From Phycisphaerales bacterium (GTDB taxonomy: Bacteria; Planctomycetota; Phycisphaerae; Sedimentisphaerales; Anaerobacaceae): a stretch of 64,000 nt of DNA. A model generated the notes under the pieces. That model saw nothing but the letters and a program-made list of their open reading frames with translations, was not told where the DNA came from and made no database searches. The position numbers and the translations under genes were made by a program. The stretch is taken from the NCBI GenBank assembly GCA_020352215.1, contig CP070675.1:4626137-4690136 (forward strand), written 5' to 3'. Shown one piece after another: positions 1-15,542 of this stretch (positions within the stretch are counted from its first letter, which is position 1; each line of letters begins with the position of its first letter).

Positions 1-1808
1 AGCTTGCTGGACACCTCTGTTCCCACAGTGAGGAGCTGAATGTCGTACGGCACCTGCCCGGTGTAGTCAATCCATCGGTTCGACGCATGGAGAGTCACTC
101 TTGTGTCGGGATTTATGCGCCAGAGATAGCTGGCTTCAATTCGCGTGCTCACGGAAGGGATCCGCGTTGATTCTTCGCTGCTGTACTCGGCTAACAACCT
201 CAGGCCCTTTTTCACATAGTCTGTGCCGAACGTATTGATCTCGAACTCGTCGGGCACAATATCAGTGTCGGTCGAGCTTAGCTCCTCGGCCCGGCTGCGA
301 TACTCATAGTACATCGACAGGCCGTTATGAAACCGTTCTCTCACTCTTACGCCATGGGTAAAAGCCTGTTCGTCTCTTTGCGGCTCTGTGAAGAAATCAT
401 AGTCTATCGAGAGTGTCTGGTCTCCGTCAGTCGTAATATCTCCGGGAATGATGATTATCTCAGTCATGCCGCTGCTCTGACTGACGGTGTAATCGCTGTA
501 GGTCGTCGAACGGTCGCTACTTCGAACAGCAATTGACGAAGTGTCGACGTTTGCTCTGTCAAGTCGTATGCGCCAGGAGCCGGCGACCTCAAAAGGATGT
601 CGCTCGTCCACCACGCTAACCATAGTGCTGCCGCCTTTTTGTTGAAGATCGAGCAGGTTGGCGGACCAATTGCCAAAGAGCGTGCCCCATCTGTTCTTCT
701 TTCTGTAATCAAGCGTTAAGCCGCCGCCGTTCCGCGTAAGGTCCACTCCCTCACCGAGGTTGGCTTTCGAGGTATAGACGTTGCCTTGTGTAACCAGGCT
801 CTGGAACAATCTGTGTGTAAACCCGGCCTCCCCTCGAGCCTCATCGTTTCTCAATGTCGGTCGTTTGGATTGATTGAACGAGAAGTCGTAATGGGTTTCA
901 AGAGTGTCGGAGTGTTTAAGCCTCATTCGCTCCTGCCATAGGAGCCGTTGAAGATCGAAATCACCCGACTGATCAAGAAAATTGAAGAAGGAATCGAGTC
1001 GAAATTGCTCATCATTACCCAGCACCAGATCGTGCGACAATGCGTACGTGTCTTCCGTTCTATCAAACGAAGTGCCAAGCCTTTTCTGGTTGACATTACT
1101 CCTCTGGTAATCAAAACTCAGGCTTGATGATCTGCTGAAGTCGTGGTCGAGGGAGTATCTGAAGCGTTCATCTTCCCTGCTGAATGGATCTTTATCCCTT
1201 ACACCTTGTCCCTCCTGCTCAGTCCTGCCGCGACTGTACTGAAACCGCATGGGCCATTCCCTTGACCGCCAGCTGACCGTGGCGCCCGCGCCTTGTCTTT
1301 CGGTCTTCAAAGAACTGGTGAACTGTCGAGGAATCAAGTCTTCGGACTTGTCGAGGTAGAAGGACATGGGGTAGGACTTTTTTGAAAGCAATTCGCCCGA
1401 CAAATCGTATTCATCAAGCGTCCCGGTGCCGTCATCGATTTCGCCGTCAAAGTCAAACCTATGTTGTGTAAGGCCGAACCCGAGACCGGCTGCAAAGGCC
1501 AACAGATCAGGATGATATACGTCGCCCTCGGTTTCGAGTCTCAGCCTCTCCTCAAATTCCATTGTGTCATTCTTGCGTCCAATCCCTGCGGTCTCCTGTT
1601 CATCAATGCGTTTCTCAGCAACCAGCTCAATTTCGCCTTGAATTCGCTCATGTCGTATGAGTGGCCGCTGTTCACCAGCGATGTCAACCCTGCAGCCGGC
1701 AAGACAGATCAGACCTACACCGCAAGCAAAAAGGGCCAAGAGGACTTCTCTCGTCGGTACTCGCGCGACTTGCGGGCGCCTTGTCTTACAGTGTTCTACG
1801 TTCAGCAA
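1..1808 (-). CDS. Putative outer-membrane beta-barrel lipoprotein. The C-terminus lies outside the window. There is no ATG; the start is probably the TTG near 1808.
   Basis: The minus-strand frame is uninterrupted from the window edge up to the in-frame TAA at 1875-1877. It is absent from the ORF track because it lacks an ATG and runs off the edge. My translation begins ...KTRRPQVARVPTREVLLALFACGVGLICLAGC (lipobox LAGC). More than 500 aa follow with alternating aromatic/polar strand-like segments (ATVSWRS, MRFQYSR, LSFDYQR, THYDFSFNQ, LSMYYEYRS, IEASYLWRI) and no further Cys. Confidence 0.6.
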   Translation of the reverse strand, partial: MLNVEHCKTRRPQVARVPTREVLLALFACGVGLICLAGCRVDIAGEQRPLIRHERIQGEIELVAEKRIDEQETAGIGRKNDTMEFEERLRLETEGDVYHPDLLAFAAGLGFGLTQHRFDFDGEIDDGTGTLDEYDLSGELLSKKSYPMSFYLDKSEDLIPRQFTSSLKTERQGAGATVSWRSREWPMRFQYSRGRTEQEGQGVRDKDPFSREDERFRYSLDHDFSRSSSLSFDYQRSNVNQKRLGTSFDRTEDTYALSHDLVLGNDEQFRLDSFFNFLDQSGDFDLQRLLWQERMRLKHSDTLETHYDFSFNQSKRPTLRNDEARGEAGFTHRLFQSLVTQGNVYTSKANLGEGVDLTRNGGGLTLDYRKKNRWGTLFGNWSANLLDLQQKGGSTMVSVVDERHPFEVAGSWRIRLDRANVDTSSIAVRSSDRSTTYSDYTVSQSSGMTEIIIIPGDITTDGDQTLSIDYDFFTEPQRDEQAFTHGVRVRERFHNGLSMYYEYRSRAEELSSTDTDIVPDEFEINTFGTDYVKKGLRLLAEYSSEESTRIPSVSTRIEASYLWRINPDTRVTLHASNRWIDYTGQVPYDIQLLTVGTEVSSK

Positions 1809-1874
1809 CGCTCTTTCGTCTCCCTGACTTCTATGGTCGCTCTGTTCCGGCCGGCTCGCCCCGCAGCTCGGCTG

Positions 1875-3197
1875 TTACCCAGGCTTCGACGACTTCGCTC
1901 TGCCGACCAAGGTGTTCTCTATATCCGCCAGATAACGCTCTATCGCCTCGGCCAGCGGTACCGGAGCCATGCCACTTTTCAATACCTTGATAAAACCTTC
2001 CTTCGCCTCATTGAGCCGACCGGCACGATATGACCCAACGCTGCGATAATAGAGTTCTGCAATCCCCTTCTTTGTCTCAGCTCGATCCTGCTGACTGTCC
2101 GCTTCCTTAGGCCTCACGGTTGGCAGCTGCGGTATCTGTTTTGTCACAGCCGCTGCTTGTTTGGTCTTCCCCATGTGCGCTTCGGCTTGGGCTACTAAGT
2201 CGAGTGCTTCCGCAACCTTCCCTTGCTGCTCGTCGGTGAATACACCCCAGTCCTTGACCTGTTCAAGATAGGCTCTGGCTATGTGCAATCTGCCCTGGTC
2301 CACGAGTTCGTTGACTCTACTGAGTATCCCGGAGAGACCTTTGCCTTCGAGCACGCGTGTCCGAGTTGTCTCCAGGAGCCGCTCCAATTGGTTGGGATCA
2401 CCTTCACCAGCTTGTTCCCGCAACTGCTTTGCCACACTGAGCGACTCTTCTGTCGGCTCGCCAATCCCTATTTTACGTCGGGCTATTTCTCCACGCGTCA
2501 GACCTTGGTCAACCTGGCCAACCGCACTCTGTGAATCGAGAGCCTCACCAGCTTCAGATGGCTCCTCCTTCAGAAGATACTTCGCCGTACTGGCATGACC
2601 TGAGTGGCAGCGGTCGCATCTGGAATATAGTTCTGTGTCGTGTTTCTCGATCAATCCAATACTCTCAGACTCGTGGCACTGGTAGCAAATATCAGGTATC
2701 GGCCTTTTCAACAGGAACCTGTTCCTTGTCCTGTGTGGTTCGTGACAGAAGATGCAATCGCCGGTGGCAACAGGGCCGTGCACCCATCCTTCTAAAGCTG
2801 ACAAACCCTCATGGCACTCGTAGCACAGGTCCGGAATCCGCGCAGTCAGTTTTACCTCGCGCGAGAAACTCCGTTGCTCTTGGGTTCCATGACATCGGAT
2901 GCAGTCCTTTCGCGGTTCATGTATGTACCAGACGGCCTCGGGGCGTCTGGTCATATCTCGAGAACTCGTCGTGACAGCTCCGTCTGTAAGTCCCTCTGCC
3001 CCCAGAGGCGGAACGCCGTCAAAGAAGAACGTCAAACTCCTGTGACGATCAACCTCGTCACAGCTCAGCGTTGACACAAAAAGCGAAAAGAGCACCAGAA
3101 ATCCGACCGAACCGGGCCTGACCCGCGATAGCACAACATAGGGAGACTTCGATTCCCGCATAACTACTGGATCCAACAGCGTGAAAGCCGCGTCCAT
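1875..3197 (-). CDS. Membrane-anchored pentahaem c-type cytochrome with a C-terminal helical (TPR-like) module
   Basis: 440-aa ORF with an N-terminal hydrophobic anchor (GFLVLFSLFVSTLSC) and five CxxCH motifs (CIRCH, CYECH, CIFCH, CYQCH, CDRCH). The C-terminal half is Ala/Glu/Leu-rich and helical. The start could instead be the internal Met at 3161. Confidence 0.8.
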   Translation of the reverse strand: MDAAFTLLDPVVMRESKSPYVVLSRVRPGSVGFLVLFSLFVSTLSCDEVDRHRSLTFFFDGVPPLGAEGLTDGAVTTSSRDMTRRPEAVWYIHEPRKDCIRCHGTQEQRSFSREVKLTARIPDLCYECHEGLSALEGWVHGPVATGDCIFCHEPHRTRNRFLLKRPIPDICYQCHESESIGLIEKHDTELYSRCDRCHSGHASTAKYLLKEEPSEAGEALDSQSAVGQVDQGLTRGEIARRKIGIGEPTEESLSVAKQLREQAGEGDPNQLERLLETTRTRVLEGKGLSGILSRVNELVDQGRLHIARAYLEQVKDWGVFTDEQQGKVAEALDLVAQAEAHMGKTKQAAAVTKQIPQLPTVRPKEADSQQDRAETKKGIAELYYRSVGSYRAGRLNEAKEGFIKVLKSGMAPVPLAEAIERYLADIENTLVGRAKSSKPG

Positions 3198-3251
3198 CTG
3201 GCCGGCCTTCAGATTCAGCTCTTTTCTTGTCAGGTCTGGCTTTCCTCAACG

Positions 3252-4721
3252 TCAACGCTCACGACTTTGCCTTTTCGCCAAAGCACTATCTATCTCGGCT
3301 ATGTAGCCCCGAACGGTTTTTGCCATCGGTGCAGGAATCAAGCCGCTCTCGGCGACCTTGAGGAAACCCTCTCTGGCCTCTTGAAGCTTGCCGCCACGGT
3401 AAAGCGCCATACTGCGGTAGTAAAGCTCAGCTACCGCCTTTTGGCGTTCGAGCATCTGATTTTCTGCGCTCTCGCGCCCTGGCCCCTTGGTGGGTTCGAC
3501 CTTCGGCTCAGGTTGCACCGTAGCTGGGGTTGAAGTATCGGCCACCTGTTGTGTCCGCTCGTCTTCAGGTTCGGGCTCCAGAACCAACTTCTTCGCACGC
3601 TCTATCGCCTTCTCCTGGATGGGAAAAGTGCCAAACCCGTAAACGTTAATCTTCTCTCCATACTGGTTCGATACAAGTACCAGGAATTCTATCTTGGCAC
3701 CCTCGGCGAAGTATTGCTCGAATAAATCCACGTTGTCGTAGTCAATGGTGATTGAAGCCGGCATGTTCATGTTCCCGGGTTCAGACCCTGGGAAACCGAA
3801 GAACATCAGGAGTTGTCCCTTCGAGTCATATACTTTCGCAACCTCAGGTGCCGCATCGACGACCCATATTCTGTCTTCTCTGTCAATATCTATCCCCTTG
3901 GGCCTGACAAAATGGTGGATGCTGTCGCCGACCTTGCCGATAGTCTGCTGAAAGACTCCGTTTTTGTCGAATTTCGTTATTCGCCCGAATATCTTGTCAG
4001 TGACATAGATGTTCTCCTGTTCGTCCAGTGCAATGTCACCGATGAGACCAAATTGGCCTTCCTGGTCACCGGCCTTGCCTATGCGCGTGAGCTCCTCACC
4101 AGTGGCGATGTCCAATACGACAACCTGGCTGCTGTTCATGTCGGTTATATAACAGCGCTTCCCGCGAACAGCTACATCTATGGGTTTGAGTTTGAGGTCG
4201 CTGCCCAACACGGCTTTGAGCTCATTGTCCTTGCCAAAGACAAAGACCTTTCCACCGGTCGGGTCAGCTATGAATTTTCTGCCGTCTTCGGTGTGGATAT
4301 TGACGGGGTTCATCATCCGCCGCTCTTTTGTCAAATACCCGAAGGACTTGCGCCGCAGATCAAGCACCTCGACTATCTTCTTTTGGACGTCGCACACGTA
4401 CAGCTTCCCGTCATGGATCGCTACGCCATAGGGTTTGGCGATCCAGTCCTTGTCCAACTGCTCTTCACCGACGATGAACTTCTCAAAACGACTGGTCTTA
4501 CGGGCAACTGTACTGCCCAAGTCCTCTGACTCAGAGAAGGACACCAAGAATTGCAGGCGCGGCCTGTCGGGAGCGGGGGGGTAGAAGACCCTTTCCAACG
4601 ATGACGAGTCAAGCCCCGGTCCTGTTCTGGCAGCCTCTTGGCATCCCGGCAAGACACACGCCGCGCACACCGCAAAAGCCGCCACTAAACCTCTGTGGTA
4701 TAAGAACTTCACATGTCTCAT
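3252..4721 (-). CDS. NHL-repeat beta-propeller lipoprotein with a C-terminal helical module
   Basis: Signal peptide with lipobox (VCAACVLPGC). About six NHL-type blades are visible (PYGVAIHDGKLYVCD, NPVNIHTEDGRKFIADP, KPIDVAVRGKRCYITD, LIGDIALDEQENIYVTD, RPKGIDIDREDRIWVVD, MPASITID). A Pro/Glu linker follows, then a 64-aa tail related to the tail of the 1875-3197 protein. Confidence 0.8.
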   Translation of the reverse strand: MRHVKFLYHRGLVAAFAVCAACVLPGCQEAARTGPGLDSSSLERVFYPPAPDRPRLQFLVSFSESEDLGSTVARKTSRFEKFIVGEEQLDKDWIAKPYGVAIHDGKLYVCDVQKKIVEVLDLRRKSFGYLTKERRMMNPVNIHTEDGRKFIADPTGGKVFVFGKDNELKAVLGSDLKLKPIDVAVRGKRCYITDMNSSQVVVLDIATGEELTRIGKAGDQEGQFGLIGDIALDEQENIYVTDKIFGRITKFDKNGVFQQTIGKVGDSIHHFVRPKGIDIDREDRIWVVDAAPEVAKVYDSKGQLLMFFGFPGSEPGNMNMPASITIDYDNVDLFEQYFAEGAKIEFLVLVSNQYGEKINVYGFGTFPIQEKAIERAKKLVLEPEPEDERTQQVADTSTPATVQPEPKVEPTKGPGRESAENQMLERQKAVAELYYRSMALYRGGKLQEAREGFLKVAESGLIPAPMAKTVRGYIAEIDSALAKRQSRER

Positions 4722-4876
4722 AGTTACATTCTCGTCAAATAAACCCCCCTGTCGTTAGCAAAGAATGCTTGTATGTTACACTTGACTTCTCTGCGCGCAG
4801 CCGCCGCTACTCGCGTTGGCGTGATTTCAATGCGGCCGGCATAGCTGGCGCCTGCGGAAAGAGACATCCGCCGCGC

Positions 4877-4919
4877 AAAAAATCTGGCCCGATATATGGA
4901 CTACGCCATATATCGGACC
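4877..4919 (-). terminator. Intrinsic terminator downstream of the tetrahaem cytochrome gene
   Basis: Perfect 11-bp inverted repeat CCGATATATGG/CCATATATCGG (4889-4899 and 4906-4916) with a 6-nt loop. On the minus strand it is followed by AGA plus T6 (plus-strand A-run 4877-4882). Confidence 0.6.
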
Positions 4920-4987
4920 ACGTTCAATGGTCAAGACCGGTAAAAACCTAATCCTGCGCCCCCAAAAAAGTACCCAAGACACTCTTG

Positions 4988-5605
4988 CTACTTGTCGTGA
5001 CAGGTCAGACACAGAGCGCTTCCACTATTGCTCATGACCAGAAGCGAGGCAAGTCCAGCGTCGTCGTGCACGTCATGGCACGAGGAGCATTCCACCCTGC
5101 CTGCATAAAGCAGGTCAGCTTCAATAGTGCCTCCCAAGCCGGAATTCGCCGTTGCCGGATCGAAAAGACCGCCGTCGGAAGTTGCGAGAGCACTGTCGTA
5201 GGTGAATGAAATTGGGTGCGAATCGGCCAGATCGGTGCCGAAGGGGTTGCTGATGAAGGTTGTGCCTCCGAGGAAGCCCCCGTAGTTGTCCAACGCAACC
5301 GTGCCGTCGTGACAGCTCAAGCACAGCTTAGACGTGCCAGTCGGCTGGCCGATCGTTGCAGTCCCGCCAAATGTCGGGCTCGAGTACAACGTAAAGACCG
5401 AGGTTGTGACCTCGTGATTCCAGAGAGGCGCACCCAAAACGGTCATATCAGCATCGTGAGGCGTGTGACAAGGCTGACATATCTCGCCCGTCCCCCAGGT
5501 CTTACTGCTGAAATCGTGCGACGAGCCGGTTATGGCTGCGATAGTGGCTGTACCGGCCACCATCAGTACGCAAACTCCGAGGACCGTAATTCTCCATGAT
5601 TTCAT
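4988..5605 (-). CDS. Secreted tetrahaem c-type cytochrome
   Basis: Four CxxCH motifs (CQPCH, CLSCH, CSSCH, CLTCH) and a signal peptide (MKSWRITVLGVCVLMVAGTA). I moved the start to the ATG at 5605 because GGAGG lies 8 nt upstream. The TTG start in the ORF track (5620) sits inside that Shine-Dalgarno sequence. Confidence 0.85.
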   Translation of the reverse strand: MKSWRITVLGVCVLMVAGTATIAAITGSSHDFSSKTWGTGEICQPCHTPHDADMTVLGAPLWNHEVTTSVFTLYSSPTFGGTATIGQPTGTSKLCLSCHDGTVALDNYGGFLGGTTFISNPFGTDLADSHPISFTYDSALATSDGGLFDPATANSGLGGTIEADLLYAGRVECSSCHDVHDDAGLASLLVMSNSGSALCLTCHDK

Positions 5606-5686
5606 GTCAAATACCTCCAAAAAACCCTTACCTTCTCATATGTGAGATATGGCACTCCTCCGGTTGAGCCGCCACCGAACTTACCC

Positions 5687-5715
5687 ATATTACCTGGCCA
5701 TACATCCAATGTCAA
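5687..5715 (-). promoter_or_regulatory. Sigma70-type promoter for the tetrahaem cytochrome gene
   Basis: On the minus strand: TTGACA (5715-5710), a 17-nt spacer, then TAATAT (5692-5687). It lies about 80 nt upstream of the ATG at 5605. Confidence 0.5.
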
Positions 5716-5717
5716 TC

Positions 5718-5774
5718 AAAAAAAGTCGCGGACCGGAAAAATTTCCGTTACACGTGTCCCCGCGGAGCGGGGAC
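5718..5774 (-). terminator. Possible intrinsic terminator ending the RR-to-thioredoxin/TPR operon
   Basis: GC-rich hairpin GTCCCCGC-GGA-GCGGGGAC at 5756-5774. An alternative pairing joins CGCGGAC (5727-5733) to GTCC(CC)GCG. On the minus strand the structure runs into T7 (plus-strand A-run 5718-5724). Confidence 0.4.
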
Positions 5775-5988
5775 AAAGATCCAAGCGAGAAGTGTAGCAA
5801 CTGGCGTGCCGCGCCGGGCGCCAGAAAGCCGGCCGGTAGGTAGAGTGTCCGTAATACCATGTCAGAAAAGGACATAGAGAAGTGGCTAAAGAGCGATGGG
5901 ACCACCAAGAAAGTGATGGGCGTGTCAACGATTCCCGTTTGTGAGAATAAGAAGGAGCGTGTATATCAGTAGTGAAAACCGTGTTTGG

Positions 5989-7008
5989 TCAGCCCGCGGG
6001 GAAGGCGAGGGTCAGAGCCGTGTAGTACGCGTTGAGCGCCTTGTCTTTGTCGCCTAAGGCCTGGTAGACTCTGCCCAACTCGAAGAAGGCGCGGCCGGAT
6101 TTGGGATCAAGTTGGGTCGCCTCAAGCAAGTGCTGTCGGGCCGTTTCAAGATCGCCCGTTTGCCGGCGGGCCCAGCCCATGATAAGCCTGACTCTGGCCT
6201 TCTGCCGTCGGGTAGCCCCTTGGACCTTGCGAATGACCTCAAGTGCTTCCTGGCTGCGGCGCATCAGACAGTACAATTCCCCGAGCTGCAAGACCGTTTC
6301 AACAGAGTTCGGATCAAGGTCGCGGGACTTCTCGAGTTCGTGGATGGCCGACTCGAATCGGGCTTTGCCGATGAGGATGTTCGCCATTTGGAGATGCCTC
6401 TTTACGCGGGCTGCAACCGTGTCGTTGGTTACCGTCTCCACGTGGCCTGCATCCTCGGGCGTGGTATCCTGGGCCACGCCCAGCGCCTTGGCCAAATGTG
6501 CGCGTGTCGCCGGGGCAAAGTCATATCCGTATCCAGCCTTGACCCACAGGACCTTATCATCTTTGCCTGAAATGACGACGGTGGGAGTGGCTATTGCGCC
6601 GAGTTTCCCCCACAAAGTGTACTGGGTGTCGAGGACCACTCGCATGGGTAGGGGGGTATCTTTGTCGCCCGGACGAAAATAGGCCATACAGTTTGGGTCG
6701 TCTATGACAGCCAGAGCAAGTAAGTCCTTGGCATCGGTCCGCAGTTCCTTTAGAATAGCTGTGATGTCTGCTGCGGCTCGGGCCGAGCGCTTTTGCTCAT
6801 TCGAGAAGAAGGCGACCATCAGCAGGTGACCTGCCCCATGCCTATAGTCGATGGTGTTGCCCGAGGAATCGACGACTGAAAACTCGGGCATCTTGCTGCC
6901 GATCTTGATCCTTCGTTCGCCACCGCTGGCCGCACGAGCGGGCTGGCATATGGCTAAGATGGCGACTATAGCGACCCAGGTAGTTTTCTTATGCTTCGCT
7001 GTTGTCAC
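5989..7008 (-). CDS. Periplasmic thioredoxin-fold (TlpA/redoxin-like) protein lacking the CxxC active site, fused to TPR repeats
   Basis: Signal peptide (AIVAILAICQPARA). The redoxin-like segment reads LLMVAFFSNEQKRS where WCxxC is expected. The C-terminal third has TPR-like repeats (ALEVIRKV..., AFFELGRVYQALGDKDKALNAYYTAL). Confidence 0.65.
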   Translation of the reverse strand: MTTAKHKKTTWVAIVAILAICQPARAASGGERRIKIGSKMPEFSVVDSSGNTIDYRHGAGHLLMVAFFSNEQKRSARAAADITAILKELRTDAKDLLALAVIDDPNCMAYFRPGDKDTPLPMRVVLDTQYTLWGKLGAIATPTVVISGKDDKVLWVKAGYGYDFAPATRAHLAKALGVAQDTTPEDAGHVETVTNDTVAARVKRHLQMANILIGKARFESAIHELEKSRDLDPNSVETVLQLGELYCLMRRSQEALEVIRKVQGATRRQKARVRLIMGWARRQTGDLETARQHLLEATQLDPKSGRAFFELGRVYQALGDKDKALNAYYTALTLAFPAG

Positions 7009-7047
7009 TGGCTTTCCTTGCCTTTCTACGTGTCGATGCCACGATTC

Positions 7048-8403
7048 TCAGGGCTTTGCGGTCGGCCGTGCAGAATAGTTTACAGCCGTTTCTCTGTCAT
7101 AGTCTTTTGGCAGATGGCAGCCTGGTGAGCAGGTGCCGCCTGTTTCGGTCTTGGAGAAACCTACGGGCAGGGTCCAGGCGCCGTACGGGACACTTTCACG
7201 GATGTGTTTAGGCAGGTTGCTCGCATGGGTGTGATGGCACGCCCGGCAGGTCCGCCCGCGACGCTCTTTGTTCACATGCAAGAAGTGCAGATTCAGATTG
7301 CCGTTTCTAAAGTTGGTGAGATCGTCGGTTCTCGCGGTGCGCACCAGGGTTTTGGGGTGACAGCCGAAGCACAGGTCGTAGTTCTCTTCGGCAAACGGGG
7401 CATAGAATACGGGAGGATATTCCTTGGCCAGAAGTCTGAAGTGTTCGCTGCCGTGGCTGACGTGGCACCCGCTGCAATCCTTTTCTTTGACGGGGCCGTG
7501 AAGGTATTTCTTGTTCTCAATCTCAGCTGTAAAGGCTCCCAGCACCTCGTCTGTACCTATGCCGACCGCCTTATCATGACAGGTCATGCAAAGAGTCGTC
7601 GGGTCGCTCTTCAATATGAATTTCACGGTTGATGCGTGAGGCGTGTGGCACATCAGACAACCATCCTCTGTGCTAACTACATTGTGCTTATGCTTCGAAG
7701 TGTCGGCGATTTTCTTTATGTCCTCGTGACACGGATAGCACATGTCAGGTGCGCTGGTTCTGAGCATTTGCCAGTTATCGGCGCCGTGAGGATCGTGGCA
7801 GCCGGCACAGTCGCCCTTGGCGGGTTCATGAATGAACTCGAACTTCTCTAATTCGCTCTTTGTCACGATATGGCAGGAAATACAGAGCTGTAAAGGCTCC
7901 ATTGTGAGCAGGCTCTCATAGTCGCTGCTGTGGGTACTATGACATACTGAACATTCGCCGACCGCTGTTGGGCCATGAAGGAATTCGGCCTGTTCTACGA
8001 GAGGGTGACAGCTCCGGCAGAGCTCGGCGACGCTTTTCTTCTTGAGAAGAGCTTTCACCTCGCTGCTGTGTGGATCATGGCATTGGACGCAGTCGCCAGT
8101 CTTCAAGGGGTCATGGACGTTCTTCTTTGCGGCCTGTTCCAAATGGCAGTTCTCACAGAGGTCTTTTCCTTCCAGCACTCTCCATGTGTGTTCCTCGGGC
8201 TTCACGGCTTTGTGGCACGACTTGCAGTCGCCCAGGCCAACCGGCGTGTGTACGAATGTTCTCTTGCTGTAATCTGCATGACACTCTTCGGTAACACACG
8301 TCTTCTGCGGTGAGGTTGGCTTCTCCGCCGCCAGTGCACTGGAAGCGACGACGCCAATCAAGAGAACAACGAACATTCTACAAAATCTATCTGACATCTT
8401 CAT
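7048..8403 (-). CDS. Periplasmic multihaem c-type cytochrome (13 CxxCH plus CX4CH and CX3CH variants), cytochrome c3/c7-polymer type
   Basis: Signal peptide (VVLLIGVVASSALAAE). By eye I count CKSCH, CENCH, CVQCH, CRSCH, CSVCH, CISCH, CAGCH, CYPCH, CLMCH, CMTCH, CSGCH, CFGCH and CRACH, plus CVTEECH and CSPGCH. Recurrent HGP/HxP...C..CH..H spacing is typical of c3/c7-like repeats. Confidence 0.9.
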   Translation of the reverse strand: MKMSDRFCRMFVVLLIGVVASSALAAEKPTSPQKTCVTEECHADYSKRTFVHTPVGLGDCKSCHKAVKPEEHTWRVLEGKDLCENCHLEQAAKKNVHDPLKTGDCVQCHDPHSSEVKALLKKKSVAELCRSCHPLVEQAEFLHGPTAVGECSVCHSTHSSDYESLLTMEPLQLCISCHIVTKSELEKFEFIHEPAKGDCAGCHDPHGADNWQMLRTSAPDMCYPCHEDIKKIADTSKHKHNVVSTEDGCLMCHTPHASTVKFILKSDPTTLCMTCHDKAVGIGTDEVLGAFTAEIENKKYLHGPVKEKDCSGCHVSHGSEHFRLLAKEYPPVFYAPFAEENYDLCFGCHPKTLVRTARTDDLTNFRNGNLNLHFLHVNKERRGRTCRACHHTHASNLPKHIRESVPYGAWTLPVGFSKTETGGTCSPGCHLPKDYDRETAVNYSARPTAKP

Positions 8404-8487
8404 ACCATCACGTCCTCTCTACGAATTACTATTCATGGGCCTTGTTGGGCCACGCAAATCTTGTTGTCTTGCCTGACAACACTTACC

Positions 8488-9666
8488 TCAATTGGCGGGC
8501 CCGGGTTCCGAGGCCTCGCGCCTGTACACAATGACGATCATCCCCGACTTAGCCTTGTGATGGGTCGGCTTGTTGAGTTCGAGGACGACCTGTTCTTCTT
8601 TCTCGCTTTCTGCAATCGTTGCGACAAGGGCAGGGTGCATGAGCTCTTCGGAGCCGTTCTTCCAATCGCTCTTCACGATCGCGTTAGTGAAATACTCCTC
8701 GATACTGAAGGAATATGCCGCGTCGGCAAAGGGATAAGGATGCTTGAGCTTGGCTTTTTCGCAAGTTCTGTTGCCCTGCTTCGAATAGAACAACCACGGT
8801 TCAGCTCCATGTCCTCCCATGAGAATGTATTTCCCGGGCGCTCCGTCCAGATCACAATCGGCGAACTCCACGCGAAGTGGAAGTTGTTCGGCGGCATGTG
8901 GGGATGTGGGAAACTTGGACCAGATCCATTGTTCGTAAACTCTACCGTTGTCGCTGAAGCGAACTTCAACTGCAGGATTCACCGGCTCGTTCGACTGATT
9001 GACCACCTCTTTCGTCTTCGTATCGATTGAATAGTGCGGCATGTATCTGAGAATGGCCAGCTTGCGATCGGATCCGGGCAGGGTAATTGTCTTGCCGGTT
9101 CCAACAACATATTCGAGCGGTACGACAGCGTCCTTTTCCCAAACCGACACAATGCCGACCGACTTGCTGCGAGTTAGCTCTTGGGCTATCTGCTGCGTTT
9201 GTTTGGGACGACGGAGCCCCAGAATTCTCACGCCGCCAATTCTTGATGATATCGCTCGCCGGGCACGATCCGATGAACTCAGCCATATGTCCTGACTCAG
9301 ATTCTTACCTTGGGCCTTCAGCTTCGCCACAATACCGCCATTCGGATCCGAGGCGGCGGACATTTCCCACTTCAGATCAGGCAGGTATTTCACAAGCTTG
9401 ATTTTGATCGGCGAGCCCGTAAGTGGCAGGACAGCATCAAGACCAGTCACCTTGTTATCATCGGCGACTTTGAGCGGGAAGCGCATCGACGGTCCCTCCA
9501 TGCCATTCTGGACGACTATCTCCCATGGTCCGGCCAACATAGCCCGCCGCATCGCCGGCGAGTAGCCAGAGACTTGGCCGACCAGTATAGACACAACTGC
9601 GATTATGGGAACAGTAGTGCGGGCCCGTCTCGAAAAAGGCTGGCATCGAATCAGGTCTATCACCAT
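8488..9666 (-). CDS. Hypothetical membrane-anchored periplasmic protein (unknown family)
   Basis: 392-aa ORF with one N-terminal hydrophobic segment (TVPIIAVVSILVGQV). There are no haem motifs and no motif I recognise. Its start overlaps the stop of the upstream cytochrome gene by 7 nt (9660-9666), which suggests translational coupling. Confidence 0.7.
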   Translation of the reverse strand: MVIDLIRCQPFSRRARTTVPIIAVVSILVGQVSGYSPAMRRAMLAGPWEIVVQNGMEGPSMRFPLKVADDNKVTGLDAVLPLTGSPIKIKLVKYLPDLKWEMSAASDPNGGIVAKLKAQGKNLSQDIWLSSSDRARRAISSRIGGVRILGLRRPKQTQQIAQELTRSKSVGIVSVWEKDAVVPLEYVVGTGKTITLPGSDRKLAILRYMPHYSIDTKTKEVVNQSNEPVNPAVEVRFSDNGRVYEQWIWSKFPTSPHAAEQLPLRVEFADCDLDGAPGKYILMGGHGAEPWLFYSKQGNRTCEKAKLKHPYPFADAAYSFSIEEYFTNAIVKSDWKNGSEELMHPALVATIAESEKEEQVVLELNKPTHHKAKSGMIVIVYRREASEPGPAN

Positions 9667-11051
9667 CCACGCTCCATTGCTTCGTTCACTATGCCATTTG
9701 CTTCGAGAAGTATCGACTCGGTGTATTTCAAGTTGTGCACCCCCCAGCTGCCGTCGGCCTCGACCGAATCGACAAGGGTTCTTGCACGCGCAAGCTTCGT
9801 TTTCACTTCTCTAACACTATTATCATCGGCTTCGCCGGCGAGCCGGTCCAGTAGGGCGTCCAATTTGTCTTTGACCTGGCCGTGCAGTTTTTTTATTTTT
9901 CCCTGCCAGAAGGGAATGTATTTTTGCCCCGTGCCAGGCTCGTGGCACTTATCGCAGGCGCGAGGCACGGCTTTGGCGACTTTTCCGAGGCTGTCCAACG
10001 CACCCGGTTTTTTCTCCACCTGCTCGATGTGGCATCCGGTACACTCGACATGGGTGAGAAACATGGGGCTCAGAACTCGCCATGTTGCCTGGCCCTGCAT
10101 GGGATGTTGGGTAGCATATATAATTCGCTGAGCTCGATGCGTGTCACTGTGGCAGTTTTGGCAATCCATCATGGCCAGAACCGATAACACGCCTGTCGCG
10201 CCGTGCGATACTTTGCCGTGACACGCAAAGCACTCAACTTTCTCGGACCCGGTGTGGACGGCGTGCAGTTCCACACTTTCGGCCAGGTGCTCCTTTCTAA
10301 AACTGTGGCAATTCAAACACACGCTCTCGGAGACCTCGCTTTTCTGTTCGAGCTCTTTTTTGTGGCACGAGTCTTCACAGCTCGCTTCGTACGAGACGAA
10401 CTCAGCGTGGTTGATGATCACCGATCCACGCTCTATGGTCTTGTCAGGGACCTCGTGACAACTTTGGCAATCTGTCTGGACGAGTCTTTCGCCGTCTTCA
10501 TCACCTTTGAGAAAGTGGCACGTAAAGCAAACATCGGTATTTACGCTGAAGTGTTCATCCCCTTCGAAGTGACTGTGGCAGGTACCACACGATATTTCGA
10601 TCCCATCGACCGTTTTGGCAATGTGATGTTCATGAGTGAACTTGATGCCTTTGTAGTCGATCTGGTCTGATATAAGTTCTTCGGTGTTGTGGCACTCGGA
10701 TCTCAGACACGAGATATCCAGGACGCGGGCATTTGGCTTTGTGCCGACTCGGCCGACGATGCAATCAACTGCCTGTGCCAGACCGTTGATCTTGCCCTTT
10801 ACATGGCCGACAAACCCGGGTTGGAGATGGCAATCGAGACAATTGACCTCACTATGCGACGATGCCTTCCAGCTATCGTAATGGTCATTCATAATGTGAC
10901 AGGAATTGCAGAAGCCCGGCTGCTCCGACACAGCCACAAAGCCCGAGGCAACGACCATCGCGATTGCGGCAAGAAGCAGAATTTTCACTTTCCAGCTTAA
11001 TTGATTCAGTCTTCTCATCAACTGTGATACGGGTCTAAAGTGCTTTGCCAT
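9660..11051 (-). CDS. Inner-membrane-anchored multihaem cytochrome with a NapC/NirT-type N-terminus (candidate quinol dehydrogenase)
   Basis: N-terminal TM helix (ILLLAAIAMVVASGFVAV), then the NapC/NirT-like start PGFCNSCHIM...SSH...CLDCH. Ten CxxCH motifs (CNSCH, CLDCH, CGTCH, CFTCH, CQSCH, CLNCH, CFACH, CQNCH, CTGCH, CDKCH), plus CLRSECH and CEDSCH variants. Confidence 0.85.
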   Translation of the reverse strand: MAKHFRPVSQLMRRLNQLSWKVKILLLAAIAMVVASGFVAVSEQPGFCNSCHIMNDHYDSWKASSHSEVNCLDCHLQPGFVGHVKGKINGLAQAVDCIVGRVGTKPNARVLDISCLRSECHNTEELISDQIDYKGIKFTHEHHIAKTVDGIEISCGTCHSHFEGDEHFSVNTDVCFTCHFLKGDEDGERLVQTDCQSCHEVPDKTIERGSVIINHAEFVSYEASCEDSCHKKELEQKSEVSESVCLNCHSFRKEHLAESVELHAVHTGSEKVECFACHGKVSHGATGVLSVLAMMDCQNCHSDTHRAQRIIYATQHPMQGQATWRVLSPMFLTHVECTGCHIEQVEKKPGALDSLGKVAKAVPRACDKCHEPGTGQKYIPFWQGKIKKLHGQVKDKLDALLDRLAGEADDNSVREVKTKLARARTLVDSVEADGSWGVHNLKYTESILLEANGIVNEAMERGW

Positions 11052-11113
11052 GAGTCTTTCAGTTCAAAGAATTCAGCCTTACGAGATCATGCGGATTACA
11101 TAATTGAGAGTCG

Positions 11114-12445
11114 CTAAGTACTTATCGGCAGCGTGAAGGCGAGCTTCGTTCCCTTGTTCTGGCTACTCTCAACCCATATTCTCCCGCCATGCCTTTCCAC
11201 TATGTGTTTTGCTATCGATAGTCCCAAACCGGTGCCGTCCTTCTCCACTGCTCGGGCGTTGCTGGCCCTGAAGAACTCGTCGAACACATTGCCGAGTTCA
11301 TCCTCGGGTATGCCGATACCTGTGTCGGAGATTTCGACGAGTGCAGAGCCGTTCTCGTTCTTCGTCCTTACGGCGATTGTGCCGTTCTCCGGCGTATATT
11401 TTACGGCATTAAGCAGCAGATTCGTGATCACTTCTTCAACGGAGACCTGGTTGCCATATATCCGGTCCCTCGACAGTTGGATGTCACTTTCAACGGTAAT
11501 CGACTTATCGCGGGCCTTTGCCTTCACTCCAGTCACCGCGCTGCACACTGTATCTCTCAACGAGAAAACGTCCATTTGCGATTCGCCGTTCAGTCTTAGC
11601 TGCGTCAGCTTCAGCAACGTTTTCACGAAGGCGGTAAGCTTTTTGGTTCTGGTGTGAGCAGTCTTGACGAAATCGGCTTGCTGTTCATCGAGCCGGCCGA
11701 TTGTCCCATTAGCTACGACGCCCAGGCAACTCTGTATCGTCGCGAGATGCCCTTTGATATCGTGTGTTACGCGCAGGACGTACTCATCCTTTATCCGGTC
11801 TTTTTCTCTGAGCAACGTGTTGGCTTGGATGTGAGCTTTCTCGGCTCGCTTGAGCCTCACGGAAATATAGCTTGCCATGTACACTACCAAGTACAAAGTA
11901 CTTGCGAACACGAAGAATACTCCGAGAATGTAAAGACCGGCACGGTAAGAGCAATGACCTACGAACCCCTCCAGACAATGGTGCGGCAGAACATGTGTGT
12001 ATTCGAGCACTACCAACAGACCGAAAAGCAGGACAGCAAACGTGGCCTGCAGATAGCTTTCCCGCACCGACAGTAGAATACTCGCCAAGATCATATGAAA
12101 TATGAAGTAGAAGACCAGCGGGTTCTCGATTCCGCCTGAAAAGTGCAGCAGAACCGTCAAGATCAGCAGGTCAGCACACATTTGGAAGTTAATGGCCCTT
12201 TTCACTGCAATGTACGGGACCTCATCGCGGGCTCCTGTGAAGTGCCTCAGTAATAAGTAAACCGCCAAGTTGTACGCCGTCAACAGTATTGCGATGCCGT
12301 AGAGAGCCCGTTCCTGTATCACGATGCCCAACACGTTGCTGCAGAAGAACGTGCCTGCACCTACGGATATCGCAGCTACCCACCTGAGCCGAATCAGCCA
12401 GAAGGCTCGCTGCACTAACCTGGCATTTTCAGGTCCCGGTTCCAT
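11114..12445 (-). CDS. Sensor histidine kinase with a RegB/PrrB-like polytopic membrane domain
   Basis: Membrane domain with WLIRLRW and LHFSGGIENPLVFYFIF (GGxxNP motif). H-box VTHDIKGHL. HATPase N/G boxes (LLLNAVKYT, DTGIGI, GTGLGLSI). The start is set at MEPGPEN (12445), 1 nt after the RR stop; the track start at 12526 would overlap the RR gene. Confidence 0.85.
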   Translation of the reverse strand: MEPGPENARLVQRAFWLIRLRWVAAISVGAGTFFCSNVLGIVIQERALYGIAILLTAYNLAVYLLLRHFTGARDEVPYIAVKRAINFQMCADLLILTVLLHFSGGIENPLVFYFIFHMILASILLSVRESYLQATFAVLLFGLLVVLEYTHVLPHHCLEGFVGHCSYRAGLYILGVFFVFASTLYLVVYMASYISVRLKRAEKAHIQANTLLREKDRIKDEYVLRVTHDIKGHLATIQSCLGVVANGTIGRLDEQQADFVKTAHTRTKKLTAFVKTLLKLTQLRLNGESQMDVFSLRDTVCSAVTGVKAKARDKSITVESDIQLSRDRIYGNQVSVEEVITNLLLNAVKYTPENGTIAVRTKNENGSALVEISDTGIGIPEDELGNVFDEFFRASNARAVEKDGTGLGLSIAKHIVERHGGRIWVESSQNKGTKLAFTLPIST

Positions 12446-12446
12446 A

Positions 12447-12845
12447 CTAAGCCTTACTCGGCAGTAGTTTCTTGACCTCAGCCAACAAGACGTCTGGTTC
12501 CACGGGCTTGTCCAGGAAGCCGTCAACCGGCAGCCACTTTGGATCCCCGGCCGTCGACTTGAACTCTATGCCCGTTTTGTCTTCGATCGACGTGAGCATT
12601 AGGATGGGTATGTCCTTCAGTTGCGGATCACTCTTTATTTCCCTGGACATTTCAAAGCCGTCGTGCCACGTGCCCATCATAACGTCAAGTATGAGCAAGT
12701 CCGGTCTTTCACTTTTTACTCTCTCCATCCCGGTTGCTCTGTCGGCAGCCGTAACTACCGTATACTGGTTACTCTCCAGAGTGGCCCTAATGGCCTTGGT
12801 GAGATCTACATCATCGTCAACAATAAGAATCTTCATATTCTCCAT
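12447..12845 (-). CDS. Stand-alone receiver-domain response regulator (CheY-like, no output domain)
   Basis: MENMKILIVDDD...DLLILDVMM...K is the receiver signature. The start at 12845 is preceded by GAGAGG. The protein is about 132 aa with no DNA-binding domain. Confidence 0.85.
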   Translation of the reverse strand: MENMKILIVDDDVDLTKAIRATLESNQYTVVTAADRATGMERVKSERPDLLILDVMMGTWHDGFEMSREIKSDPQLKDIPILMLTSIEDKTGIEFKSTAGDPKWLPVDGFLDKPVEPDVLLAEVKKLLPSKA

Positions 12846-13183
12846 AATCCACCTCTCAACGGACGTCCTTGTTAATGGTGCCAGTCGGTCGACTGAGCAC
12901 GGGGCTGGCAAATATCCTTACAACCCATCGACTGGAATCTGCAGGGCAACCGGCCTTTTTGGATTGGCCTCCCGAATGTCAACGAACAACGACGCCTTCA
13001 CCACAAAGAGACACACCTCAGAATCATTCGGCTCTCTGTACCGATCGCCATGTATTCACATTGTCCGCTCTCCCTCGTTGGCGAATCGCTGTCATCGTAC
13101 TTGTGAGTTTGATTGGACATGCAATTGCTCAACAGAGGCAAATCCTGATTCTTATGTCAACGGCCGGTCGTCCGGGGCTATCG

Positions 13184-14275
13184 TCAAAACTCGTCATAGA
13201 AGATGTCCTCATTAGAGATACCTTTTTCTTCGAGGACTCTCGTCACTGCCTCAATCATAAGCGGCGGCCCGCAAAGGAAAGCTTGCCGTCTGACGCCGGC
13301 TTCCAGGCACTTGTCAACCGACAAATGTATGAAGCCCGTTTCCCCATTCCACTCCTCATCCTCAGCAAGTTCATCAGACAGAGCGTACACCACATGGAAA
13401 TTGGGACGCTTTTTGGCGAGTTCCTCAAATTCCTTGAGATAGAAGATATCACGCGTGGTTCGACATCCGAAGAACAGCCAGCAGACGCGGTCCGGCCATC
13501 GGTCGTAAAGCGTATAGATAATATTCCTCATCGGCGCCATCCCGGCACCTCCACCGACGCATACTATCTCGACCGCCGGGTCCTCGTTGAGCCAAAACTC
13601 ACCGTAAGGTCCCGTGAAACTGACAGTATCCCCGGGCTTGATGGTGTGCAGATATGTCGAACCGATGCCGCCGGGAACCAATCTGACACAAAGCTGGACA
13701 ATATTCTCCTCATAGGCGGGAGAGCTAATGGAGTAGGCCCGAAAGACCGGCCCGTCCGGGGAGGGGGCCTGAACCTGGACATACTGGCCGGGTCGCTGCG
13801 AAATCTCTGCAGGGTCGTCGAGACGGAACACTATCTCTTTTATGTCGTACGTCAGATCGACGGAGCTCTCCACTGTGGCGGAGTACATCCTCACATTCAG
13901 CAGGTCCGACGGTATCCTGACGTAGATGTCCTCACGAATCTTGACTTGGCAGGCCAAGCGTACGTTCGAACGAATCTCCTTTCGGGTCAGGTAGGGGGTC
14001 TCGGTGGGCAGGACGGGCCCGCCACCGGATGTGATGGTGATCTTGCAGTGTCCACAGGAGCCTTTGCCCCCGCATGCCGACGGTATAAATAACTCATTGG
14101 CGTATAGACTCGCCAGCAGAGTCTGGCCTCCGTCAAGCTCAAGCGGCTTTTCACCCGCGTTGATGTCGAGCTTACAAATGCCGTAGTTGATCAACAGACG
14201 CTCAGCGACCATCAACATCGCTGCCAGCGCAACAGTGAGGCCGGCGAATGAAATTACCGACAACAAGTAGATCAT
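13184..14275 (-). CDS. nqrF: Na+-translocating NADH:quinone oxidoreductase subunit F
   Basis: N-terminal TM, a plant-type 2Fe-2S motif (CGGKGSCGHCK...LACQV) and an FNR-like FAD/NAD domain (RAYSISS, GGGAGMAP). It is the last gene in the A-B-C-D-E-F order. Confidence 0.85.
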   Translation of the reverse strand: MIYLLSVISFAGLTVALAAMLMVAERLLINYGICKLDINAGEKPLELDGGQTLLASLYANELFIPSACGGKGSCGHCKITITSGGGPVLPTETPYLTRKEIRSNVRLACQVKIREDIYVRIPSDLLNVRMYSATVESSVDLTYDIKEIVFRLDDPAEISQRPGQYVQVQAPSPDGPVFRAYSISSPAYEENIVQLCVRLVPGGIGSTYLHTIKPGDTVSFTGPYGEFWLNEDPAVEIVCVGGGAGMAPMRNIIYTLYDRWPDRVCWLFFGCRTTRDIFYLKEFEELAKKRPNFHVVYALSDELAEDEEWNGETGFIHLSVDKCLEAGVRRQAFLCGPPLMIEAVTRVLEEKGISNEDIFYDEF

Positions 14276-14284
14276 CCGTAGCTC

Positions 14285-14875
14285 CTATTGGATTGACACC
14301 ATTCCCGCAAAGCCCATAAACGCCATCGCAAGGACACCGGTAACGACCATTGATATCGCCACACCCTGAAATGGTTGAGGGACATTACTGTACCGCATTT
14401 TTTGTCTCAAGCCGGCTAACATGACAATTGCCACCGCCCAGCCGATTCCTGCGCCCAGGCCGAAGCCGACTGATTGAATGAAACTGTAGTTGCGAATGAT
14501 CATGAAAAGAGATGCCCCGAGGATGGCGCAATTGACCGTTATCAAAGGCAAGAATATGCCAAGCGCGAAATACAGCCTCGGGCTAAACCGCTCGACAAAC
14601 ATCTCAACCAACTGCACGAAGGCCGCAATCACCGCTATGAAGACGATAAACTGCAAATGTACAAGGCCGAAAGGCACCAGGACGAAATGGTAGATTACGT
14701 AGTTCAGCATCGTCGTCATAGTCATAACGAAAATCACCGCGGTGCCCAAGCCGATGGATGTCCTTATTTGCCCCGAGCAGGCGATGAACGAGCACATGCC
14801 TAAGAAGTTCGTCAGCAAGATATTGTTGGTGAATATCGCAGCGATGAATATCACCCATGCCGATGTCTCGGTCAT
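14285..14875 (-). CDS. nqrE: NQR subunit E
   Basis: Polytopic 196-aa NqrE/RnfA-family protein (FTNNILLTNFLGMCSF). It abuts nqrD. Confidence 0.85.
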   Translation of the reverse strand: MTETSAWVIFIAAIFTNNILLTNFLGMCSFIACSGQIRTSIGLGTAVIFVMTMTTMLNYVIYHFVLVPFGLVHLQFIVFIAVIAAFVQLVEMFVERFSPRLYFALGIFLPLITVNCAILGASLFMIIRNYSFIQSVGFGLGAGIGWAVAIVMLAGLRQKMRYSNVPQPFQGVAISMVVTGVLAMAFMGFAGMVSIQ

Positions 14876-15540: not shown

Positions 15541-15542
15541 CG

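Follow-up and report, generated by a model that had tools for sequence, protein, structure and literature searches.

A Planctomycetota locus that probably encodes an omcE-type extracellular cytochrome-filament system with its own inner-membrane entry

Introduction

What kind of electron-transfer system is encoded by the ten co-oriented genes that fill the first 12.9 kb of a 64,000-nt stretch of a Phycisphaerales metagenome-assembled genome (MAG; GenBank assembly GCA_020352215.1, contig CP070675.1, positions 4,626,137 to 4,690,136, hereafter the window)? A first-pass annotation made from the DNA alone had read these genes as a trans-envelope electron conduit that follows the logic of porin-cytochrome systems, built with accessory parts unlike those of any described system. 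Here we argue that the locus instead encodes, in planctomycete form, an extracellular cytochrome-filament system of the omcE type, arranged as one transcriptional neighbourhood with its own inner-membrane entry, a reading to which we give a probability of roughly 0.72.

The export, anchoring and charging of cytochrome nanowires is an acknowledged open problem (PMC12307469; bioRxiv 10.1101/2025.10.22.684050). A minimal omcE cluster, comprising two multihaem cytochromes, two beta-propeller lipoproteins, OmcE and a large beta-barrel, has been described in Desulfuromonadia (Petersen et al. 2025, bioRxiv 10.1101/2025.10.22.684050). Planctomycetota are not among the five phyla named for omcE clusters in that study (bioRxiv 10.1101/2025.10.22.684050).

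Results

The tetrahaem protein belongs to the OmcE family

When compared with the PDB sequence set, the tetrahaem protein of the cluster matched two entries only, both along its full length: 9yuq_N (E 1.8e-22, query residues 11-210 of the 210-aa open reading frame, ORF) and 7tfs_A (E 3e-20, residues 14-210). PDB 9YUQ is the bundled OmcE nanowire of Desulfuromonas soudanensis WTL (bioRxiv 10.1101/2025.10.22.684050), and PDB 7TFS is the Geobacter sulfurreducens OmcE filament. The match to G. sulfurreducens OmcE itself had an E-value of 3.7e-23 (phmmer). In an alignment of 13 sequences from several phyla, both solved OmcEs included, the four CxxCH haem motifs are invariant (C43/C46/H47, C95/C98/H99, C173/C176/H177 and C199/C202/H203), as are H30, H50, H130 and H180. 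Four CxxCH motifs and four further haem-ligating histidines are conserved features of OmcE homologues (bioRxiv 10.1101/2025.10.22.684050). Given the full-length matches and the invariant haem/His pattern, the protein qualifies for the OmcE family on all sequence criteria, and it probably polymerises into an extracellular filament.

The OmcE-like family numbers more than 7,700 proteins. A second OmcE-like gene (P0004), whose product is 70% identical, lies elsewhere on the same 6.2-Mb contig, outside the window. In Planctomycetota relatives, OmcE-like proteins with five haems (209-255 aa) are encoded near the homologous cluster (L086, 5812-6579; L087, 8904-9533). Such 5-haem variants have been put forward as candidates for a new nanowire family in which one haem is solvent-exposed (bioRxiv 10.1101/2025.10.22.684050).

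The tetrahaem gene has putative expression signals of its own

The first-pass annotation had assigned the tetrahaem gene its own promoter and terminator. Its four CxxCH motifs and the hairpin followed by a T-run are indeed present, but the promoter is plausible rather than demonstrated: TTGACA-17-TAATAT agrees with the consensus at 10 of 12 positions and is the sole match in the region, and a single match is what chance would give (0.9 expected in shuffled sequence). Terminator-like sites lie within 250 nt 3' of OmcE-like genes in 53 of 88 cases among the related loci, as against 5 of 71 for NHL genes and 5 of 58 for 5-haem genes. The hairpin is probably an attenuator that sets the excess of the subunit. 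A promoter of its own and a conserved attenuator together form the pattern expected of a major structural subunit that is made in excess of its machinery.

The OmcE-like protein is also the most conserved part of the system. Across related loci (L002-L080), its median identity to the window protein was 57%, compared with 35% for the 13-haem cytochrome, 34.5% for the NHL lipoprotein, 31% for the 5-haem cytochrome and 22% for the barrel. Extracellular cytochromes have been reported as the fastest-evolving in Geobacter, in contrast with this highly conserved subunit.

The neighbouring cytochromes and the NHL lipoprotein are relatives of omcE-cluster proteins

Of the parts that make up the published omcE cluster, the window holds two multihaem cytochromes, a propeller lipoprotein (one copy versus the published two) and a large barrel. 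The corresponding G. sulfurreducens locus (GSU0615-0619 region) reads, in order, ResB, CcsB, the 9-haem cytochrome MHC370, the 8-haem cytochrome MHC330, NHL361, OmcE, a 752-aa protein with no Pfam match, and glycosyltransferases. Three of the four accessory parts of the window are homologous in sequence to Geobacter proteins: by phmmer, the 13-haem cytochrome matched MHC370 with an E-value of 2.6e-77, the NHL lipoprotein matched the NHL/DUF5128 protein of the Geobacter omcE locus with 2.5e-31, and the 5-haem cytochrome matched MHC370 and MHC330 with 2e-28 and 2e-21, respectively.

Among PDB sequences, the best match of both the 13-haem and the 5-haem proteins was MtrA of the Mtr complex (6r2q_A; E 6e-12 and 1e-12), over partial stretches. 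With the MtrA/DmsE model TIGR03508 they scored 134.7 and 58.6 bits, respectively, against a cut-off of 192.2, so that by sequence they are related to MtrA/DmsE but fall short of membership by the curated threshold. The 13 CxxCH motifs that the first-pass annotation had counted in the larger protein are all there, but it had passed over a CX4CH (CVTEECH) and a CX3CH (CSPGCH) in the same protein. No surface decahaem lipoprotein of the MtrC/OmcA or OmcB type was found among the ten proteins, TIGR03507 giving only an E-value of 0.003 on the tetrahaem protein. The only other multihaem ORF in the window encodes one dihaem protein at 32.7 kb.

The NHL and 5-haem proteins end in a common helical module of about 60 residues (3252-3450 and 1875-2080, respectively), in which they are 50% identical (E 1e-20). 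The module has the pattern AELYYRS..YR.G.L.EA.EGF.KV..SG..P.P.A and is preceded by a Pro/Glu/Gln-rich linker. NHL and 5-haem homologues in other phyla are shorter and apparently lack it. It resembles a TPR-like hairpin and might serve both proteins for docking.

The terminal gene encodes a predicted giant outer-membrane barrel

The protein encoded at the edge of the window, for which the first-pass annotation had noted a lipobox and barrel-like strand periodicity, is truncated there. The corresponding source protein (P0121) is 100% identical to the 1-1808 product, adds 73 residues and ends in ...RLKRLF. The likely start is a TTG at 1808, with GGGAG about 13 nt upstream, giving a product of about 675 aa. 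The public annotation of this gene (JSU70_17820, 591 aa) begins at an internal Met, so that it lacks the signal peptide, the lipobox and a stretch of about 45 residues of the mature protein which orthologues conserve. The lipobox LAGC is retained in a 63%-identical orthologue, and the C-terminal residue is Phe.

That full-length orthologue was modelled with AlphaFold2 from a 93-sequence alignment. The model (mean predicted local distance difference test, pLDDT, 90.3; predicted template-modelling score, pTM, 0.72) consists, behind the signal peptide, almost entirely of long antiparallel strands, about 29-30 in number, with a small insert. A Foldseek search of the PDB returned large outer-membrane barrels only, namely TonB-dependent receptors, LptD, chaperone-usher ushers and MtrB. 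The top TM-score was that of MtrB (6r2q_B; 0.47/0.48 at about 8-10% identity), with TonB-dependent receptors and LptD scoring similarly. The product thus models as a giant outer-membrane lipoprotein barrel, contrary to the first of the outcomes that the first-pass annotation had named as refuting its reading. The protein itself had no match in Pfam, NCBIfam or PDB sequences.

The barrel model and the MtrA matches of the 5- and 13-haem proteins are in keeping with the porin-cytochrome logic proposed in the first-pass annotation. They also favour an alternative to the filament, in which the barrel and these two cytochromes form an Mtr/Pcc-like conduit and the OmcE-like protein is a monomeric surface or periplasmic carrier. 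The 5-haem gene abuts the barrel gene just as mtrA abuts mtrB, and not all members of so large a family as the OmcE-like one need polymerise. We consider such a conduit unlikely, however. All eight haem-ligating histidines are invariant in the OmcE-like protein, and the histidine of its N-terminal HD(F/L)SS motif fits a role in completing the haem of a neighbouring subunit; the promoter and conserved attenuator follow the major-subunit pattern; and the conservation of the subunit above that of its partners is as expected of a self-assembling polymer. Moreover, both OmcEs that have been studied experimentally form filaments. Outside the cell, the system therefore most likely ends in a polymeric cytochrome filament, since the tetrahaem protein is of the OmcE family and the surrounding parts are those of the omcE core cluster.

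The cluster order recurs across phyla

A scan of a genome collection with the OmcE-like protein yielded 79 loci from Bacteroidota, Calditrichota, Ignavibacteria/Chlorobiota, Gemmatimonadota, Planctomycetota, Desulfobacterota, Gamma- and Betaproteobacteria, KSB1 and others. The ten window proteins were mapped onto all ORFs of 80 loci (L001-L080). The order OmcE, NHL, 5-haem, barrel and 13-haem type was found again in most of them. Gene order is thus conserved in relatives, and the lack of conservation that the first-pass annotation would have counted against its reading was not observed. An NHL gene follows the OmcE-like gene in 79 of the 80, a 5-haem gene lies directly before the barrel gene in 61, and a 13-haem-type cytochrome is encoded in 50; the barrel was detected by profile in 70 loci. 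One further locus (L086) is colinear with the window, reading 392-aa homologue, 13-haem, OmcE, NHL, 5-haem and barrel. Taken together, the loci suggest that OmcE, the NHL propeller, the 5-haem cytochrome and the barrel are obligatory, and that the inner-membrane module, the 392-aa protein and the thioredoxin-like/TPR protein can be swapped.

Most of the loci L003-L080 contain a second module as well, consisting of another, shorter NHL protein (NHL2, about 350-370 aa) and an 11-haem cytochrome of about 550-570 aa with an OmcE-like N-terminus. It stands right after the barrel in L086 (17968-20804) and on a Planctomycetota-type JGI contig of 80.5 kb. This module could be a filament base, a cap or a second conduit.

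A putative quinol-oxidizing cytochrome and an Nqr-like complex are candidate electron inputs

The NapC-like protein has 463 aa, one N-terminal transmembrane (TM) helix (residues 24-42) and, besides ten CxxCH motifs, a CX3CH (CEDSCH) and a CX4CH (CLRSECH). The NrfH model TIGR03153 aligns over profile positions 6-134 of 138, with 60.9 bits against a cut-off of 134.2; PF03264 scored 37.8 against a cut-off of 24.1, and the match to PDB NrfH (2j7a_C) had an E-value of 2.7e-6. With its TM anchor and NrfH-like tetrahaem module, the protein is, as judged from its sequence, of the NrfH/NapC/NirT type at the domain level, not an NrfH equivalog. Its first haem motif is CNSCHIM, of the CxxCHxM form seen in NrfH.

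The C-terminal 80 residues of the NapC-like protein align with part of MccA, a sulfite reductase (E 1.5e-6). Combined with the NrfH-like N-terminus, this would suit a module for reduction of a soluble substrate (Nrf, Otr, Mcc or Hao) whose catalytic subunit lies elsewhere, an explanation raised in the first-pass annotation that we regard as highly improbable. The MccA match is limited to that terminal stretch, and domain searches of the ten proteins returned no catalytic family (NrfA, Hao, MccA or Otr). Furthermore, the partners conserved in the 79 loci, i.e., the barrel, the propeller lipoprotein and OmcE, are foreign to such reductases.

As the first-pass annotation had observed, the cluster lies directly downstream of, and co-directional with, an nqrABCDEF-like operon, the six Nqr-type ORFs of which stand in order. 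NqrD scored above its NCBIfam cut-off, NqrB, NqrC, NqrE and NqrF fell just short of theirs, and NqrA was far below. Residues 395-497 (approximately) of the NqrA-like subunit (17220-18719, minus strand, 499 aa) match RnfC/RsxC. It is possible that the complex stands between Rnf and Nqr instead of being a canonical Na+-NQR. The linkage to nqr was found again on the JGI contig, where an nqr operon and an NNT-type cytochrome stand back-to-back with the homologous cluster. That operon has no separate nqrE between nqrD and nqrF, and nqrF is followed by a 616-aa gene call with Rnf-Nqr (PF02508) and paired-CXXCH matches, possibly an Nqr membrane subunit fused with a multihaem cytochrome, or else a gene-calling artefact. 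NNT-type and/or cytochrome-b-fused multihaem proteins are present in Planctomycetota relatives.

Cytochromes of the NrfH/NapC type have been characterised as quinol oxidases, which argues against a reading in which electrons flow inward, from a donor outside the cell (Fe(II) minerals, sulfides, a syntroph or a cathode) to quinone, with the Nqr-like complex reversed to NADH. In favour of inward flow, multihaem wires are reversible in principle, the adjacency of nqr also suits reverse electron flow, and the related NHL-cytochrome clusters of Desulfovibrio ferrophilus have been linked to electron uptake from solids (PMC5815863). In a survey of lake MAGs, however, the extracellular electron transfer genes of Phycisphaerae were classed as mostly reductive, with oxidative markers in 3 of 139 operational taxonomic units (bioRxiv 10.1101/2022.03.26.485925), and no carbon-fixation or Cyc2-type gene occurs in the window. 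Overall, we think it decidedly unlikely that the locus serves to draw electrons in.

Residues 43-458 of the histidine kinase, membrane part included, align to the ActS/PrrB/RegB model NF033792 (E 8e-29, below cut-off); the protein also has a PilS-like 6TM match and about six hydrophobic segments. Around residue 130 the membrane part contains GGIENPL, which resembles the RegB quinone-binding motif GGxxNPF. This likeness fits sensing of the quinone pool.

Two proteins are paired with the 13-haem cytochrome in the window and in some relatives

The 392-aa protein had no match in Pfam, NCBIfam or PDB sequences, in agreement with the first-pass annotation, and a Pfam search with 70 members of its family was likewise empty. 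The family comprises 307 representative clusters, and its named members are all from Planctomycetota. The AlphaFold2 model (pLDDT 92.9, pTM 0.85) has an N-terminal TM helix followed by an all-beta periplasmic body. Foldseek found nothing significant for it in the PDB, the top entry being the haem-handling CcsBA (7s9y; E 0.028, TM-score 0.14), which is too weak to be used. A likeness to the periplasmic domain of ResB was an unsupported impression and was set aside. Homologues are encoded directly upstream of the 13-haem or OmcE homologue in L085, L086 and L087. A metagenome scan with the single 392-aa protein gave one locus, in which its neighbours are cytochrome and NHL genes and NapC is absent. 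This linkage suggests that the 392-aa protein may be an inner-membrane-anchored partner or scaffold of the 13-haem cytochrome.

The thioredoxin-like/TPR protein, correctly described in the first-pass annotation as lacking CxxC, has SNEQ at the corresponding position. Its matches to TPR_CcmH_CycH (E 4e-5) and to AhpC/TSA (E 3.4e-5) did not reach the cut-offs, and TPR families were also matched. Its gene lies downstream of the 13-haem homologue in L037, L069 and L085 too, and this conserved pairing suggests that it probably helps the 13-haem cytochrome to mature.

L085 reads 13-haem, thioredoxin-like/TPR, cytochrome-b-fused 19-haem, NNT-type, TPR/4-haem, 392-aa homologue, OmcE and NHL, and in L087 a 392-aa homologue, a multihaem cytochrome and OmcE are followed by NNT-type and cytochrome-b-type proteins.

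Organization and genomic context of the locus

The features are listed in Table 1. All ten minus-strand genes were confirmed where the first-pass annotation had placed them, and its description of the regulator, kinase, NapC/NirT-type cytochrome, NHL lipoprotein and 5-haem cytochrome stands, down to the haem-motif counts of the two cytochromes. The PVC/Planctomycetota-like background that it had perceived agrees with the source genome. Its statement that the genes are separated by short gaps or overlaps applies everywhere but on the two sides of the tetrahaem gene. The response regulator and kinase genes are about 1 nt apart, 62 nt separate the kinase from the NapC-like gene, and the start of the 392-aa ORF overlaps the NapC-like stop by 7 nt. 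Then follow gaps of 84 nt to the 13-haem gene, 39 nt to the thioredoxin-like/TPR gene, 383 nt to the OmcE-like gene, 266 nt to the NHL gene, 54 nt to the 5-haem gene and 66 nt to the barrel gene.

Table 1. Features of the putative filament locus and of the adjoining operon, in the direction of transcription (coordinates are window positions)
Feature	Coordinates	Strand	Evidence and remarks
nqrABCDEF-like operon	13184..18719	-	Best NCBIfam matches NqrA-NqrF in order; proposed electron input and energy-coupling site
Receiver-only CheY-like response regulator	12447..12911	-	PF00072 E 5e-20, without output domain; likely start ATG 12845
RegB/PrrB-like membrane histidine kinase	11114..12526	-	HATPase_c E 6e-30; likely start ATG 12445
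12-haem NapC/NirT/NrfH-type cytochrome, proposed quinol dehydrogenase	9660..11051	-	TIGR03153 E 1.3e-16
392-aa protein, TM helix and all-beta body	8488..9666	-	No family match; AlphaFold2 model
13-haem MtrA/DmsE-like periplasmic cytochrome, proposed wire	7048..8403	-	Paired_CXXCH E 3e-64, DmsE-family E 4e-39
Secreted CxxC-less thioredoxin-like and TPR protein	5989..7008	-	TPR families; proposed maturation/holding factor
Sigma-70-like promoter match	5687..5715	-	TTGACA-17-TAATAT, 5' of OmcE-like gene
OmcE-family tetrahaem cytochrome, 205 aa, proposed filament subunit	4988..5605	-	PDB 9yuq_N and 7tfs_A matches
Terminator-like 15-bp hairpin and T-run	4885..4920	-	3' of OmcE-like gene
NHL/DUF5128 beta-propeller lipoprotein	3252..4721	-	PF17170, PF01436; signal peptide and ...VLPGC
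5-haem MtrA-like cytochrome, proposed barrel-inserted wire	1875..3197	-	5 CxxCH; hydrophobic N-terminus
Predicted outer-membrane barrel lipoprotein, N-terminal 602 of about 675 aa (window edge cuts the rest)	1..1808	-	Lipobox LAGC; AlphaFold2 model

Beside nqr lies a haem-supply island (19358-32602) with a uroporphyrinogen methyltransferase/HemD fusion, two radical-SAM proteins (one SPASM), hemA, a cytochrome-c-assembly-family protein and hemC, interspersed with an ECF sigma factor and a sigma-54 two-component pair. In Geobacter, too, the omcE cluster adjoins haem-handling genes, resB and ccsB. Beyond the island, a 629-aa protein (32741-34630, minus strand) combines YncE/SGL/lactonase-like propeller repeats with a dihaem peroxidase/MauG-like and a cbb3-type cytochrome c domain.

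Discussion

Comparison with described systems

The claim of the first-pass annotation that the accessory parts differ from those of described systems does not hold, given that OmcE, an NHL lipoprotein, two cytochromes and a large barrel are the omcE core cluster. The core of the locus is a known system, described in 2022-2025, and not a new kind of conduit. The parts that are non-canonical proper are the 392-aa protein, the CxxC-less thioredoxin-like/TPR protein, the 12-haem NrfH-like cytochrome, the barrel family and the nqr linkage. What is new is the phylum, relative to the literature searched, together with the lipoprotein barrel family, the inner-membrane module and its nqr link, the 392-aa family and the C-terminal module of the NHL and 5-haem proteins.

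The locus shares with the Geobacter omcE cluster a tetrahaem subunit of identical haem/His pattern, an NHL lipoprotein, two MtrA-like cytochromes, an outer-membrane protein with C-terminal Phe, and nearby haem-handling genes. The gene order differs: the OmcE-like gene is the first among the outer-membrane parts in the window, with the 13-haem gene upstream, whereas Geobacter has the two cytochromes, then NHL, OmcE and barrel. The window barrel is a lipoprotein of another sequence family, glycosylation genes are absent, and an NrfH-like 12-haem cytochrome, the 392-aa and thioredoxin-like/TPR proteins, a two-component system and the nqr link are added. The other Geobacter filament system, OmcS/osc, is built from a hexahaem protein without sequence similarity to OmcE, and a porin-based mounting model has been proposed for it (bioRxiv 10.1101/2025.10.22.684050).

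With MtrCAB and the Pcc systems (OmaB-OmbB-OmcB, Ext) the locus has in common an MtrA-like cytochrome gene beside that of a very large barrel, and the logic of a haem wire in a porin. It departs from them in that the outer partner is an OmcE-family tetrahaem protein, not an MtrC/OmcA/OmcB decahaem cytochrome, and in that the propeller lipoprotein is obligatory. Against the 26 strands of MtrB, about 30 are predicted for the window barrel, which moreover is a lipoprotein itself. A single N-terminal TM helix, an NrfH-like tetrahaem module that opens with a CxxCHxM motif and a proposed place at the exit from the quinone pool link the 12-haem protein to NrfH, CymA and ImcH. It differs from NrfH and CymA in carrying 12 haem motifs in 463 aa instead of four and in its translational coupling to the 392-aa protein; ImcH has seven haems.

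The DFE_0448-0451 and DFE_0461-0465 outer-membrane cytochrome clusters of D. ferrophilus IS5, the 'DFE' markers of FeGenie, are likened to the locus by description, in that multihaem cytochromes are co-expressed with NHL-repeat beta-propellers (PMC5815863). They differ in that no OmcE-type subunit or giant barrel has been described for them and that electron uptake is proposed (PMC5815863). 'DFE variants' have been reported in Phycisphaerae MAGs (bioRxiv 10.1101/2022.03.26.485925).

A proposed electron path

If the locus is an omcE-type filament system, electrons could take the following path, in which every contact between parts is conjectural. The Nqr-like complex, identified from its genes, would oxidise NADH and reduce quinone, its coupling to the cluster being suggested by the conserved linkage. 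The 12-haem NrfH/NapC-type cytochrome would then oxidise the quinol, as its domain homology suggests. The 13(+2)-haem cytochrome would carry the electrons over the periplasm, with the 392-aa protein positioning it and the thioredoxin-like/TPR protein maturing it, to judge from the gene pairing. At the outer membrane, the 5-haem cytochrome, set in or docked to the barrel and partnered by the NHL lipoprotein, would take the electrons across; the fold of the barrel and the adjacency of the genes are consistent with such a complex. Finally, a polymer of the OmcE-like protein would lead them away, in line with the family of the protein and its conserved haem ligands. Through the RegB-like kinase and the CheY-like regulator, the cell probably adjusts expression or activity to the redox state of its quinone pool.

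Several observations weigh against this reading. The identity of the window protein to the solved OmcEs is 34-37%. The second module with NHL2 and the 11-haem cytochrome is absent from the window, leaving one propeller lipoprotein only; it probably lies just beyond the window start, because it follows the barrel in L086 and on the JGI contig. Four rounds of profile searches over all fetched loci never recruited the Geobacter 752-aa protein, and direct comparison of the barrel with it gave an E-value of 0.006 (hmmsearch --max, in a ten-sequence database) and an hhalign probability of about 1%, a comparison of limited sensitivity because a single Geobacter sequence was used. As far as sequences go, the two are not detectably homologous and appear analogous by position and fold class only. 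The barrel may house the 5-haem cytochrome, export or anchor the filament, or do both, and the role given in the literature to the barrel of omcE clusters is only 'secretion or anchor' (bioRxiv 10.1101/2025.10.22.684050). The outward direction of electron flow, which we infer, is not fixed by sequence, and even in Geobacter the physiological role of such filaments is disputed.

A bolder version of the filament reading takes the locus and nqr as a hard-wired NADH-to-mineral chain without a diffusible carrier. An Nqr-like sodium pump would be its sole energy-coupling site, the 12-haem cytochrome and the 13-15-haem wire would be held together by the 392-aa protein, and the barrel would both house the 5-haem cytochrome and assemble or anchor the filament. 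We offer this only tentatively, as a possible but doubtful arrangement. If it were true, this type of cluster would be the commonest nanowire machinery in nature, and its accessory proteins would answer how filaments are secreted and brought into electrical contact with the cell.

Nearly all nanowire work so far has been on Geobacter. The OmcE-type system found here is compact and apparently complete, with an input, a periplasmic wire, a barrel, cytochrome and propeller, and a subunit with its attenuator, and the 79 multi-phylum loci provide a comparative handle on which parts are obligatory and which can be swapped. For the organisms themselves, the finding suggests that anaerobic sediment Phycisphaerales may respire solid acceptors.

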